NCBI RefSeq assembly: GCF_018977255.1
Contig: NW_024704742.1
Coordinates: 48,672,001-48,736,000, forward strand
Direction of reading: 5' to 3'
Origin: Callorhinchus milii
Lineage: Eukaryota
Length of the DNA stretch: 64,000 bases
In this document: positions 17,041 through 63,379 of the stretch, piece by piece
Layout of the letters: each line of letters starts with the position of its first letter
Numbering within the stretch: the stretch's first letter is position 1
Program-made: the position numbers and the translations under genes
Notes under the pieces: generated by a model
Told to the model about the DNA's origin: nothing
The model's database searches: none
The model's input: the letters and a program-made list of their open reading frames with translations, nothing else

Positions 17041-20000
17041 GTTGTGGTGGTTAATTTGGAAGTCACTCCCTCCTGTCTTGTTTATTGGGGGAGTAAATTA
17101 ATGATGTTTCATAATGTGTTTGATATGAGATTGAGTTGTTAAGCACTACTAATGTCATCCCTGTACGTACTAGACATTGTTATTCTGCCTTGACTGTACA
17201 CGTCCTTTTTTTTGGTGCCTCTGATGGAAACCAGTGACAAAACTGTGCGTTCACAGTTGGAAACAGATGTTTTTTTTCTGTTGGTGTATTATCATTGTTA
17301 GTTTGCCTGATTTAAAAAAAACGCATTTCTCCTCTCCAGTAATATTGTTAAAAATAGGATGACAGATTCTGAGGTCATTATTTTTTCTTATCACAACGAC
17401 TGTGTTGTAGTCTCTTACCAAACTCTGCTTTATATAGTGCACAACATAACGTGTCAATCTTTCTGTGATGTTACTTCAGGGACTTTTTTAAAAGAAAATC
17501 CCTTCCTGTTTCCTAAGGTAAACTGCAGCTGAGAACAGTGCAACAGGACTTTCACAGAGAGCTTTGTCACGTCATTCATGTAAGATCACAGAGAAGTCAA
17601 ACAGGAAAATGTTACTGAATATAGTGTGTGAGGAACTGTGTGTGACTGGCAATGATTCTAAGGCAGTGGGGTTCAGGTGATGTCCTAAACTGCCTTAAGT
17701 CACTGTGTATAATGAATTTTATAAAACATATCTTTTATAATGTGAAGCGCTTTGAGGCGTCCTGATGTGAAATGCTCTATATCAAATGCAGTTATGATTA
17801 TTAATTATTATGGTGATAAGAATAATTACACATCAACACATCAAGGACACGAATGCCACCCATTGAGACATTCTTATGGCGTACATGGGGTTTCTGCTAG
17901 AATATGTACTTCAAATCCAGAGGAACCTTTCCCAGGAACGAGACAACATTTATGTGGTTGTTTTCCAGGCGGGTCCATTTTCAACCCGATTTGATTTTGA
18001 TGGCATGGAATGTCGTGGCAAACTCTGATCAGCATTTTGTCCAATTGTTGTCAGTACTGTGGAATTAATTCACAGTTGTTACACATTCACTGCAAGTTTA
18101 CCAAATAAAAATCCATGGTCGATTCACTTAGGAAACAGGGTCAGCGTGTGTGAAACCAAAGGACAGCAAAAGAACACACTCTTTTCAGTGCTTGCTGCAT
18201 GTGGACATAATCAACTGAAAACTGCTGTTAGGTGGGAAATTGGCGTGTTTCAGTGTGGACTGATTCTGTGCCACCATTAGGATTCTACATCCATATTCTT
18301 ATTGGATGAAGCAAAGGAAAGCCACCCTTTTGTAAAGTAACAAAATGGGTTGTTTATCTGAACTTGCTGTGTTGGGGTTACAAGGACAATATCAAGGACT
18401 GTTTAGCCACAGACTGTTGAGCTTGGTAAGCCGGGCAACTTCTGTTGAATTGAAATAGTGAAGAACATGGTGATGCTCTTCTCTCATATAAATGACCTCA
18501 GTGTATTATGGAACAATGTTTTGGATCAAAGTAAGCTTTCACATGGAATTAGGCTCTGGAATGATAGCAAGCGTCTATCAGGCATTTACTAGCAGGCTGG
18601 TTGGGAAGCCTTCACTACCTACCTCACAAAATTAGTTTTAGAGAAAAAAAATTGCCCTCAATTTTTGGTGTTTCGAAAGATTAATAAAATGTTGAGAGAT
18701 ATGTAAATTATGTCTTGACTGAATCTTTCAACATTTTTAATTGTTGCTGCAACAAGTTTCCCAGAATTGATTCCACAATTGTCAATAGAATTGTAGAAAT
18801 TGCAGCATTTAGTCCAGCGAGTCTGATGTTTGTTAAGCTTGTAAATACAGTATTGGATAGCTCTGTCACACTATTAGCATGTTGGATGACACAGTCAAGA
18901 TACTTTTCCAGTTCAACCTTGGGTAGAGAGAAAATCAAAGAAAGAGCTGCGTTGTTGAGGTTCCACAATGAAACTAATGTCTTATGTGATACAATGGAAG
19001 AGCCTCTCTCCAGCTACAAGAATAAACCACAGAATTCAGTGTACCTTCATTTATGGTCAGATTATTAGTAATATATCACAGGTCAGAGATTAATCATCAT
19101 TTTATTTAAAAAAAGAACTAGGCACTTTATGTTGATACTATGAAATCATTCTATTTTTCGCCAATTCCCTGGCCTCCTTAGGCTGTGCTCAGACTGAAAG
19201 GATGGCCGAATAGGCTGTTCCTAGGTTTCCATTGATCCCATGATGACCTGGCCAGTACAAAGTGTCCCTATTTTTCCTCTACAAGTGGGCAATGTTGGTC
19301 TTGTTCAGAGCCTCTCTGGAGTGTCATGGTTCAGACCAGAAACTCACTGGTGATTGAGCTTGTATCCCATCAAGGTGACTGTGTTGCATTTGGGGAAAAT
19401 ATGTTTAATCTAAACTATCCCACCCACCCTCTAGAATATCAAGAGGCAACATTTACAACCGGTCCACTGTGCTTCAGCCCAGGGATTGGTGCGCTTCTCG
19501 TTCCGCTCACCCCAGGAACTCAATATGGACCTGTCAAATACTGCATTTGCTTTATCTGGAATTTTTTTGGCCTGGAAACCAGACACAATGACCACAATGG
19601 TTTCTTATAGACAAAAGGAAGAATATCTCCTCTTGGGGAAATAAATTCTGAACAATTCTTTTTCCCAGGATTTGAGTTGGGAGTTCATTCAACTAAACCT
19701 ACTTATCTCCCTCTGCCTCAGATAATTGTCCATCTGAGATCACTTTCCAGGGTGACCTAGTCTGTAGTTTTCAGTGCAGTTCTTTCATGGAATAGGTTGA
19801 CATCGAACTCCCCTTCATTCTCAAAAGACCAGTTTATCTAAGTTGACATGCTAAAATGTTTTGACCTGGCATCAGTTGAAATTGTAAGTAGGATTTTAGA
19901 AACCTATGATTTCGCTGTTGCTGATGTTCAAATTTGTTTCCTATTATGGGGTGGAAGTTCTAAATGATTTCAGAAGATCACATTCTTGTTTCTTTTTGAT

Positions 20001-42304: not shown

Positions 42305-43368
42305 TTACCTTTTCACTTAAACAGCCGTGTCAGATTTTGCAGCTGCTCATTTTGTAACCAGTTATGTTGGGGGTGTAGATCAGCTTCCATATGGGAGGAG
42401 GTGCATTTTGTGCTTGCTGTATGGTGCCAAACACAACTAAATGTCTGCCAGCAGAACTCTTCTCCTTTGTAAAATTAGCTAACTTCCTCCATCCCTCTCC
42501 AAACCAAACCTTTTCTCCACAGAAGCAGGCACACCAATTCACTCCATCATGTCTGCCACTGCTGTCTCTTTGTTTCCAAGGCCCCTTTTATACAAAATAC
42601 ACAGTCAACAACAACAAGATTACATTTGTATAGCGCCTTTCACGTCATAAATATGCAGGTTGGTAGGGGGTTAGTATTTTATAGTAAAATCCTGTGAAAT
42701 ACTTTTAGACATCCTCCTGCCCTACATCAAATGCAAGGATATTCCCACTTTGCCAGGTTCTCCTTCACCCCCCCACCCCCCATATATCTTTGATTTTTTT
42801 TATTTCTCAGGTCTTACTAGTTTGCTATTGAATGATTTTGTCAGTCCAGCCTCAATAACAAATGGCGTGCCTCAATACTATGGAGGAGGAGCTCTGTGAA
42901 GCGCTGTGGCATTTTACAGAGCTCCAGCGTGAAGGGCACTAAATAAATGCACGATGTTGTTGTAAATACTGGTGCCCTGATGCTTCTACTGAATTACATC
43001 TTCTGCACTCGACTCGAGGTATTATAACTTTATAATAGTTTTATTACTAAGATTATCCAATGCTCGTGACAGGATCTCTTGTGTATTACAGATTTCAAAG
43101 CAAGCATGTTACCATGTTAGCTTTGGTGTTACCAAAGTGGAGTGTTGACGCTGTGGGGAAGTTTCTGCAAATAAAAAGAAAGTATGTCTCTCTTGAGCTG
43201 GGTACAGGGAAGTGAAGAAGAATGACCTGGGGTGGATTTGTTCTGAGTCTTTTTTTCCTCCCTGTGGAGAAGGGAGGGGTTTGAACAGGGCAACTTGCCA
43301 CTACATGGCAACGTGGAGATGAGGAACTCGGCATGTGAGGAATTGCTGACACAAGCAAGCGGTCTATT

Positions 43369-43506
43369 GTGGATTTCAATGGAAAGTATGAACTCAAGCG
43401 CCAGGAAAGCTTTGAATCATTTATGAATGCGATTAGACTCCCAAATTAGTTTTTTGAAAAAAACACTGGGCCCATGAGTGCCACTCAAGTCGTTCACAAT
43501 GGAAAG
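43369..43506 (+). pseudogene. FABP1-like (liver-type fatty-acid-binding protein) processed pseudogene fragment
   Basis: VDFNGKYELKRQESFESFMNAIRLPN*FFEKNTGPMSATQVVHNGK aligns ungapped to recalled human FABP1 residues 1-46 (20/46 identical); GTG at the start position, TAG at 43447-43449, no intron at the exon 1/2 junction. Confidence 0.85.
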
Positions 43507-43605
43507 TTGGAGCACCAACTACATTTCTGTGATCGTATATTTAGCTATATTGTTATCACTGTATTTAAAAAAAGATAACAATTTGTTCAATTGCATAAAA
43601 ATCAG

Positions 43606-43765
43606 GCGTCAGCCTGACTAAATTGGTAGCACGTTTGCCTCTGAGTCAGAAGACTGGATTTAAGCCCCATTGGCATAATTTGAGATCATAGCCTAGACTA
43701 GCACTCCAGTGTAGTGCTGAAGTAGTGCTATATTGTTAGAGATACCAATACAAGGATTATTATTT
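43606..43765 (+). mobile_element. Old Deu-domain SINE, internally deleted
   Basis: GCGTCAGCCTGACTAAATTGGTAGCACGTTTGCCTCTGAGTCAGAAG head; CAAGGATTATTATT tail. Confidence 0.7.
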
Positions 43766-44330
43766 GTTTTGATGCACATTGGGATTGTCTAAACTGTATT
43801 TGCATACTCGAAATTGTGTCTTGGTTTATGAACACAATTGTGGGGTTCCCCAAAAATTGGGAAAGAAATGATGATCCTGAAGGTCAGAGTTGTGGCTAGC
43901 ATTTGTGTTCTGAGCATTTAGTGGACTTTGTGGGCCTTTTTCTCAGCTCAGAAACTCCCCAAAAAGCAAAACAACGGCTGTGATTGTGAATTCAGGTTGC
44001 AAATGCTGCATTTTCAACCTAAATTTCTGATTTATATTTAGTTTTGAATTTGCACACAGAAATCAACAGTTTGTATCATGGTCATGCTGCAAAAGAACCT
44101 TATATTTGATAACAATTTATATTGACATAGACAGAGCCTTTCATGTTAAGAGGATGTCTCCAGGTGCTTTACGCAACAGACTGGGAGCCCGAGCTGCAGA
44201 TGGGGAAACAAGGGGTAGAATGTCTGAAAGAGGTTCAATCATATTTCCCATAGTCTCTAATCTAGGTCACCAGTCCTGTTCCTGTAACCCTGATACCTGC
44301 TGCAGTCTTCAATGTGTGATTCCTCTGCAG

Positions 44331-61439: not shown

Positions 61440-63379
61440 CGTCTTTGTTTGACCCTCAATACTCCTTTCTTCCCCCATATCCATGCCATGACCCGTTCTG
61501 CCTTCCCCCACCTCTGCAACATTGCCCGACTCCACCACTGCATCACCCCTCAGGCCACTGAAACTGTCATACACGCATTCATCAACTCATGGCTCGACTA
61601 CGGAAACACCCTCCTTGTCGGTCTCCCCAACTCTTTCCTCCACAAGCTGCAGATCATCTAGAATTCTGTAGCTCGTGTCCTCTCCCACACCAGGCTCAGT
61701 GACCGCATCACCCCCACCAGCTCCACTGGCTCCCCATCCCTCAGAAGATAGAATTGAAAATCGTTGTCCTCACCTTCAAGGCCCTCCGTGGCCTTGCTCC
61801 CTCCTACATCTATGACCTGCTGACTCCCTATGAACCTTGACAATAAGATGTAGGAGCAGGAGTAGGCCATTCAGACCCCGCCATTTAATATGTTCATGGC
61901 TGATCTTCTGACCTAATTCCATTTACCCGCCCTATCCCAATATCCCTTAATCCTTCTATCCTTTAGAAATCTATCAACCTCAGCCTTGAATATGTTCAAG
62001 GACTGAACATCCACAGCCTTCTGGGGTAGAGAATTCTACAAATTCACTATCCACTGAGTGAAGAAATGTTTCCTCAACTCAGTTTGAAAAGGCTGACCCT
62101 TAATCTTGAGACTATGACCCTTAGTTTTAGATTCTCCAACCAGGGGAAACAGTCTCATAGCATCTACCCTGTCAAGACCCTTAAGAATCTTATAGGTTTC
62201 TATAAGTTCACCTCTAATTCTTCGATATTCTAGAGAATATAGGCCTAATTTACTCAACCTATCCTCATAGGTCAACCCTCCTCATCCCAGAAACCAACCT
62301 AGTGAATCTACGCTGCAGATTATGTCTGCAGTATGTCCTAAGGCAAGTATGTCCTTTCTTAAATAAGGAGACCAAAACTGCACACAATATTCTAGGTGTG
62401 GTCTCACCAAGGCCTTATACAACTGCAGCAAGACTTCTCTATTCTTGTACTCTAACCCTTTTGCAATAAACGCCAACATGGCATTAGCCTTCCTAGTTGC
62501 TTGCTGTACCTGCATACTAACGTTTTGTGACTGGTGTACAAGGACACCCAAATCCCTTTGAACACTACCACTATCTAGTCTCCCCCCCTCTAGAAAATAA
62601 TCTGCTTTTCCATTTTTACTGCCTAGGTGAATAACTTCACACTTGCCCACATTATACTCCATCTGCCACCTTCTTATCCACTCACCTAGCCTGTCTATTT
62701 CCCTTTGCATTCTTTGTGTGTCATCCTCACATCTTACTCTCCCACCTATCTTCGTATCGTCCACTAATTTAGATATGTTGAGTTCTATTTTCTCATCTAA
62801 ATCGTTGATATAGACTGTAAATAATTGAGGTGCAAGCACTGCTTCTTGTGGCACTCCACTTGTCACATCCTGCCAATCTGAGAAGGACCCGTTTATCCCT
62901 ACTCTCTGTTTTCTTCCTGTTAGTCACTCTCCAATCCATGCTGATATATTACCTTTAATTTTATGGGCTCTAATCTTATGCAACAGCTTTTATGTGGCAC
63001 CTTGTCGAATGCCTTCTGGAAACCCAAATACACCACATCTACTGAACCTGCCTGCACCCTCCGCTCGGCAGGCTCCGGCCTGTTCCATGTCTGCCGCCCG
63101 ACCCACCCTACCATCGGCGGCCGAGCTTTCAGCCTCTCTGCTCCCACCCTTTGGAACTCTATCCCACAACTCCTTTGTCTTGCTGCCTCTCTTGCTTCCT
63201 TCAAGGCATGACTCAAGACCCTCCTTTTTGACCGTGCCTTCAACCGTCCTCCTATCCCCTCTGCTCTCCCTCATCCCACCCTGCCCTCCCACGCTCGGGT
63301 CCTGATCCCTGATTATTCAGTCACTTGTGATTTCCTCCCGACGTGAAAGGCGCTTTACAAATGTAATTTTGTTGTTGTT
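61440..63379 (+). mobile_element. L2 LINE 3' portion split by a CR1 insertion (arms 61440-61837 and 63043-63379)
   Basis: TETVIHAFINSWLDYGNTLLVGLP...; joining the arms restores LLTPYEPACTLRSAGSGL; (TTG)n tail. Confidence 0.9.
61838..63042 (-). mobile_element. CR1 LINE, 5'-truncated, RT domain to 3' tail
   Basis: VDVVYLGFQKAFDKVPH, TSGVPQ.AVL.PQLFTVYINDL, SKLVDDTKIGG, LYKALVRPHLEYCVQFWSP; tail GAATGGCCTACTCCTGCTCCTA; TGAACCT on both flanks. Confidence 0.95.

Follow-up and report, generated by a model that had tools for sequence, protein, structure and literature searches.

Does the stop-interrupted FABP1-like frame in this stretch of DNA (64,000 nt in all, hereafter the window) descend from a reverse-transcribed mRNA, as the original prediction proposed, and has any part of it been put to new use since? 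Positions 43369-43506 correspond to FABP1 codons 1-46, read on the plus strand from a GTG and broken by a TAG at 43447-43449, the position of codon 27. With the stop read as X, the frame matches PDB sequences over 46 residues without a gap (phmmer, 177,635 PDB sequences; E 1.2e-7, 35.6 bits), and the human liver FABP chain is identical to it at 20/46 residues. A profile built from 84 full-length FABP1 proteins scores 28.5 bits at 43372-43506, the next best place elsewhere in the six frames of the window scoring 1.0, and this profile finds no other FABP piece in the 64 kb. The Pfam match is weak (Lipocalin_7, E 0.042, under the Pfam cut-off). Similarity ends after the Asn-Gly-Lys at codon 46: codons 47-80 match FABP1 at 1/34 positions and are unrelated, and a functional FABP frame of about 127 codons is not present at the fossil. 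Frame, GTG start, stop, human identity and end point had all been described in the original prediction, and each held when the translation was checked and the identities were recounted.

In a comparison with 227 proteins, two shark FABP1s and a lizard FABP1 score highest without gaps (22-23/46 identical). The sharks are Scyliorhinus torazame (XP_072338115.1, P0122) and Carcharodon carcharias (XP_041073396.1, P0134), each identical at 22/46 positions without a gap, and the comparison with chondrichthyan FABP1 thereby bears out the predicted kinship. These proteins were reached via a fish fabp1 exon in metagenome contigs (108 of 109 candidates); a direct homologue search with the read-through frame gave no match at E 0.001 or better, and a second search gave no candidates. 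Among the 120 of 291 protein matches listed there are two sharks and none named C. milii. Where a codon departs from both shark proteins, a single base change separates it from them in 20 of 24 cases, as expected from decay. The TAG, too, is one base away from the Glu codon of both sharks, which agrees with the predicted placing of the stop at a Glu position. Codons 1-19 are more FABP1-like than codons 20-46, and an early freezing of the former was considered as a reason and rejected, the same gradient being found in intact FABP1s (89% vs 69%; Fisher P 0.13). An exact 11-nt direct repeat within the fossil (43377-43387 and 43497-43507) has its second copy where FABP1 homology ends; both copies encode Asn-Gly-Lys, and the repeat is therefore probably due to chance.

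The position of intron 1 was taken from a teleost fabp1 gene rather than from the host's own parent gene. The teleost sequence lies at 1-160 of a metagenome contig (L001), evidently host DNA; it comprises the promoter of a fish fabp1 gene and its exon 1, with TATAAAA 50 nt upstream of the ATG and GTAAG following codon 22 and one further base. At this position the window reads GACTCC, with no GT within 10 nt. Compared with four FABP1s, codons 1-22 alone are the best of 127,864 window positions (14/22 identical), and codons 24-46 alone are the best of 127,858 positions (8-9/23 identical, score 41-44, next best 29-34). At the nucleotide level, 43369-43435 is identical to the fish exon 1 at 42/67 positions. 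Each side of the junction is thus independently homologous, and exon 2 sequence directly follows exon 1, just as had been claimed for a sequence running straight through intron 1. No TATA-like motif occurs in 42900-43369. Together with the lesions in the fossil (GTG for ATG, TAG at codon 27 and truncation at codon 46), the sequence, intronless and dead as FABP1, is very probably a processed FABP1 pseudogene, and the retrocopy proposed in the original prediction remains the most likely origin. Table 1 gives the features of the locus.

Table 1. Features at and around the FABP1-derived fossil, in window coordinates.
Feature	Positions	Strand	Evidence
Pyrimidine tract plus AG, possible splice acceptor for the +1 frame (weak)	43248..43269	+	Top 2.7% of 3,821 plus-strand AGs, rough own matrix
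Block nearly unchanged in organism B	43315..43426	.	1/112 nt different
35-codon ATG-TGA frame, candidate only	43319..43426	+	+1 relative to FABP1; coincides with the block; open upstream to 43247
Probable parent 5′ UTR remnant (inferred)	43345..43368	+	Extra depth in run X1
FABP1 exon-1-derived coding part, codons 1-22 plus one base; start decayed to GTG	43369..43435	+	14/22 identical to each of four FABP1s
Exon 1/exon 2 junction, without intron	43435..43436	+	GTAAG in fish fabp1 (L001) vs GACTCC here
FABP1 exon-2-derived part, codons 23-46, premature TAG 43447-43449	43436..43506	+	Codons 24-46 identical at 8-9/23
Segment beyond homology, possibly 3′ UTR plus decayed A-tail (A7 43567-43573)	43507..43580	+	Without FABP coding similarity; organism B aligns to 43535
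Right copy of two weak target-site-duplication (TSD) candidates	43581..43594	+	8/8 with 43236-43243; 10/14 with 43333-43346
High-copy repeat (SINE-like) adjoining the fossil, outside it	43597..43760	.	Summed contig depth hundreds to thousands in all four runs

The copy keeps its 5′ end and is without codons 47-127; the usual LINE truncation removes the 5′ end, and a 3′ coding loss is the reverse of this. The supposed C-terminal remnant (STNYISV) is rejected, since 31-48% of 300 random window segments score equally well against the three parts of the FABP1 profile. The A-run is real, although one base off, as A7 at 43567-43573; its reading as a polyA remnant is weak, with no AATAAA or ATTAAA in 43427-44300, and the window holds 21 plus-strand runs of at least seven A (about 0.33 per kb). 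The search for target-site duplications likewise produced nothing above background: its two candidates share their right copy at 43581, and exact 7-mers give 2 matches where the background averages 1.5, while 14-mers with at most four mismatches give 2 where it gives 10. At the 5′ end, run X1 (DNA-like, same species) is covered more deeply in the bins 43310-43350 and 43351-43391, in keeping with a second contig at about 43345-43391. This contig, deduced from depth and itself not listed, gives a hint of a candidate parent exon 1 comprising a short 5′ UTR and the first codons.

Two other origins of the copy have to be weighed. A source in FABP6 or FABP10 rather than FABP1 is very improbable: although no fabp6 is listed for C. 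milii in the available part of PMC7193176, the ten top-scoring PDB sequences are liver FABPs without exception (33-36 bits), with ileal types at 21 bits and the liver-basic ones at 16, so that, as judged from these bony-vertebrate structures, the fossil is closer to FABP1 than to FABP6 or FABP10. We also regard it as improbable, if less so, that the copy is a DNA-level duplicate of a FABP1 paralogue already without intron 1, or the remnant of an ancient genome duplication. Such an origin would accord with the lack of a clear tail or TSD, and shark FABP1 (22/46) is not matched more closely than bichir or lizard FABP1 (22-23/46), which leaves room for a very old copy. Against it stands that intron loss itself usually needs a cDNA. 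Moreover, no trace of exons 3-4 or of the rest of exon 2 exists in the 64 kb, and the TATA is lacking. C. milii has two tandem fabp1 genes, whose six annotated transcripts have 3 or 4 exons in the part of PMC7193176 at hand (supplementary Table S1). The annotated genes thus have introns and lie at one locus, which speaks against a DNA-level origin, while some transcripts have only 3 exons, in rows that do not state which intron is absent.

The intronless copy is shared with a second species. Run X10, from organism B, includes a contig of 382 nt whose unbroken alignment covers 43256-43535 and contains 31 other letters and 3 gaps. Of these substitutions, 24 are given individually; the remaining 7 presumably sit in the outermost 30 nt at either end, where differences go unlisted. 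In organism B, no difference is listed at the GTG or the TAG, the intron is likewise absent, and the sequence stays in register past codon 46. Consequently, the copy was inserted, truncated and dead as FABP1 before organism B and the species of the window (organism A) split. The presence of this FABP1 copy in a second species, and hence its age and its death by the time of the split, is new here, as is the near-unchanged block at its front end. Our literature search, outside which most subscription papers lay, found no report of this FABP1 copy. Organism B further carries insertions of 2 nt and 1 nt within the FABP1 coding part, and differences between A and B in the FABP1 frame number 5 non-synonymous and 1 synonymous over codons 1-30, against 3 and 2, respectively, over codons 36-46. 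Small as these numbers are, they suggest that the parental FABP1 frame was under no protein-level selection between A and B. A second contig of organism B at 43893-44024 (16 substitutions and 2 gaps in 132 nt) fits an orthologous locus; window parts without X10 cover are evidence neither way. That second stretch may represent neutral DNA of the orthologous locus, or else a further element under mild conservation. Two substitutions and a 2-nt deletion with respect to the window (43703, 43960, 43961) are common to runs X1 and X4 and are either alleles or assembly errors.

Differences between the two species are unevenly spread. Positions 43315-43426 hold a single difference in 112 nt, with 84 identical bases in a row, amid aligned DNA that is 12-21% different (23 substitutions in 108 listed positions of the neighbourhood, 16 in 132 in the second flank). 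This evidence comes from one contig and one species pair, and its P value runs from 1e-10 to 0.1 with the null chosen. Binomially, the block has a P of 9e-6 to 7e-11 at background rates of 0.12-0.21, and a uniform permutation for the 84-nt run gives 8.5e-5. With clustered differences collapsed, the block has a P of 0.04-0.05; under gamma rate variation it has 0.11 at shape 1 and 0.03-0.0008 at shapes 2-8. X10 was found by about 5% shared sampled 31-mers, a share nearly supplied by the 84-nt run alone, which introduces an ascertainment effect. On balance, we consider it likely that the 112 nt around the fossil's 5′ end are under constraint. A non-coding reuse, most simply as an enhancer-like element, is a candidate to which we give an even chance; reuse as a micropeptide or an exon is a candidate of clearly lower standing.

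That the locus is simply a neutral pseudogene, its quiet block produced by rate variation plus ascertainment, appears rather unlikely. The collapsed-cluster value and the gamma values at shapes 1-2 would permit it, and it would fit that RNA folding of the block is unremarkable (z 0.15 and 0.08), that Rfam gives no match in it up to E 1, and that X10 was found through the block itself; yet 23 substitutions crowd the 108 neighbouring positions, so that collapsing clusters over-corrects, and the second flank differs at 16/132. It is similarly doubtful that the front end of the retrocopy was recruited as coding sequence in the +1 frame, either as a 35-residue micropeptide starting from the ATG at 43319 or as the terminal exon, from the acceptor at 43269 to the TGA at 43426, of a gene further upstream. 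The block begins 4 nt upstream of this ATG and closes with the final base of the TGA, the next difference being the base after it; such a two-ended ATG-stop match occurs in 0.7% of 42,658 non-repeat 112-nt blocks within 4 nt and in 2.6% within 8 nt. The coincidence of block and ORF was noticed post hoc, however, and the TGA at 43424-43426 arises automatically from FABP1 Phe-Met-Lys codons, while ATG frames of at least 35 codons cover 31% of non-repeat plus-strand bases.

The differences themselves lean towards the +1 frame. The single difference in the block (43399) is synonymous in it and non-synonymous in the other two plus-strand frames; one minus-strand frame also reads it as synonymous, yet has a stop in organism B. 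At the 84 non-synonymous sites 0 changes are seen against 10-18 expected, and at the 21 synonymous sites 1 against 2.5-4.3. Over 43286-43426, 6 of 10 differences fall at third positions, with 4 synonymous and 4 non-synonymous codons, and the frame is open in both species. On the other side, the 35-residue peptide has no match in Pfam, the PDB, the Atlas or an exact look-up, no upstream partner exon was recognised (137 of 938 non-repeat ORFs of at least 30 codons in Pfam, no convincing family), and no spliced contig is listed. Run X4 covers the stretch evenly and unspliced, like the X1 contigs, and is uninformative on expression, X4 and X6 being RNA by guess. Overprinting, by which a dead FABP1 retrocopy would have given rise to a new micropeptide or terminal exon of the chimaera lineage, is unlikely: the +1 frame would span the 5′ UTR and the first 19 codons, with its ATG in or near flanking DNA and its stop latent in the FABP1 codons. 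Antisense to the fossil, 43098-43445 on the minus strand is a stop-free frame of 116 codons in which the differences of organism B are 2 synonymous and 8 not; on this sequence evidence, it is probably not coding.

Returning to the processed pseudogene with a constrained front end, we propose that the copy arose from a spliced FABP1 mRNA by reverse transcription and entered this site before organisms A and B diverged. The RNA route would have been taken by trans-mobilisation, probably through a LINE reverse transcriptase of unspecified clade. Codons 47-127 may then have been lost by later deletion or by incomplete copying, both of which fit, and the 112 nt around the 5′ end would afterwards have become constrained, for which a non-coding role is the simplest explanation.

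The original prediction had thought a retrocopy surprising among CR1 and L2 elements. The window does contain a reverse-transcriptase fragment at 62282-62923 (Pfam RVT_1), which, going by its motifs, we take to be CR1-like, just as we take an element at 41 kb to be L2. On the minus strand, 61916-62923 is a fairly intact 3′ fragment of a LINE reverse transcriptase (Pfam RVT_1, E 1.6e-7). L2 and CR1 are given as the prevalent LINEs of C. milii in the accessible part of PMC5381603; several LINEs require their own 3′ end, while mammalian L1 is relaxed (PMC3747384, as far as its available text goes). In non-mammalian chordates, retrocopy number is reported to track L1, not L2, copy number, as cited in the portion of PMC4641402 consulted. 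The surprise was nevertheless overstated, because neighbouring LINEs do not identify a past trans-acting enzyme. The copy predates the species split, so that present LINE content says little about the mobilising enzyme, and trans-mobilisation would have been independent of the neighbouring LINEs.

Pfam scans of 137 of the 938 non-repeat ORFs and 13 long ones, which may miss short exons, revealed no protein-coding gene in the window; they returned the reverse-transcriptase domain and four sub-threshold matches. A rough exon scan of the window gave 8 candidates. At 18708-19015 on the minus strand, a 101-codon open frame follows a pyrimidine-rich AG, ends in TAA and reads like a helical protein segment; it has no match in Pfam, the PDB or the Atlas and may represent either a terminal exon or the relic of a transposon. 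Nine tRNA-like Rfam matches of 30-51 bits (1104, 11553, 21989, 22125, 32068, 33200, 41978, 49366 and 52676), none of them at the fossil, are most likely the heads of tRNA-derived SINEs. Single N bases stand at two positions, 14839 and 45311.

The pseudogene itself is ordinary, one more old retrocopy; it is useful as a shared insertion marker for chimaera-like species and as a sign of mRNA mobilisation in this lineage. The conserved front end is the part worth following. Confirmed constraint on the block would make it a compact, datable example of a fossil gene put to regulatory use, while translation of the +1 frame would make it a de novo gene from the alternative frame of a pseudogene, in a slow-evolving vertebrate and with the source still readable.

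Compared with vertebrate FABP1, of which the sharks are examples, the fossil shares codons 1-46 ungapped (22/46 identical) and a junction at the position of intron 1, but it is without the ATG, the intron, the TATA and codons 47-127 and has a stop at codon 27. With LINE-made processed pseudogenes, as described in the available parts of PMC3747384 and PMC4641402, it has in common that it is an intronless, disabled mRNA copy of a multi-exon gene and, to judge from the window, lies apart from the locus of its parent. It differs from them in its 3′ rather than 5′ coding loss, in being without a clear tail or TSD, and in a genome whose prevalent LINEs are L2 and CR1 (PMC5381603, same part), elements described as needing stringent 3′ recognition. 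A further likeness is to the exapted protein fossils of host genes, derived from ERP44 and SPOP, which in the accessible portion of Frith (2022, PMC9004415) are likewise disabled protein fossils with strong local DNA conservation; that study also produced protein-fossil tracks for C. milii, in which the present locus may already be marked. Those fossils are conserved from human to chimaera and show no 3-periodicity, whereas the FABP1 fossil is seen in two related species and its differences lean to the third positions of a shifted frame.
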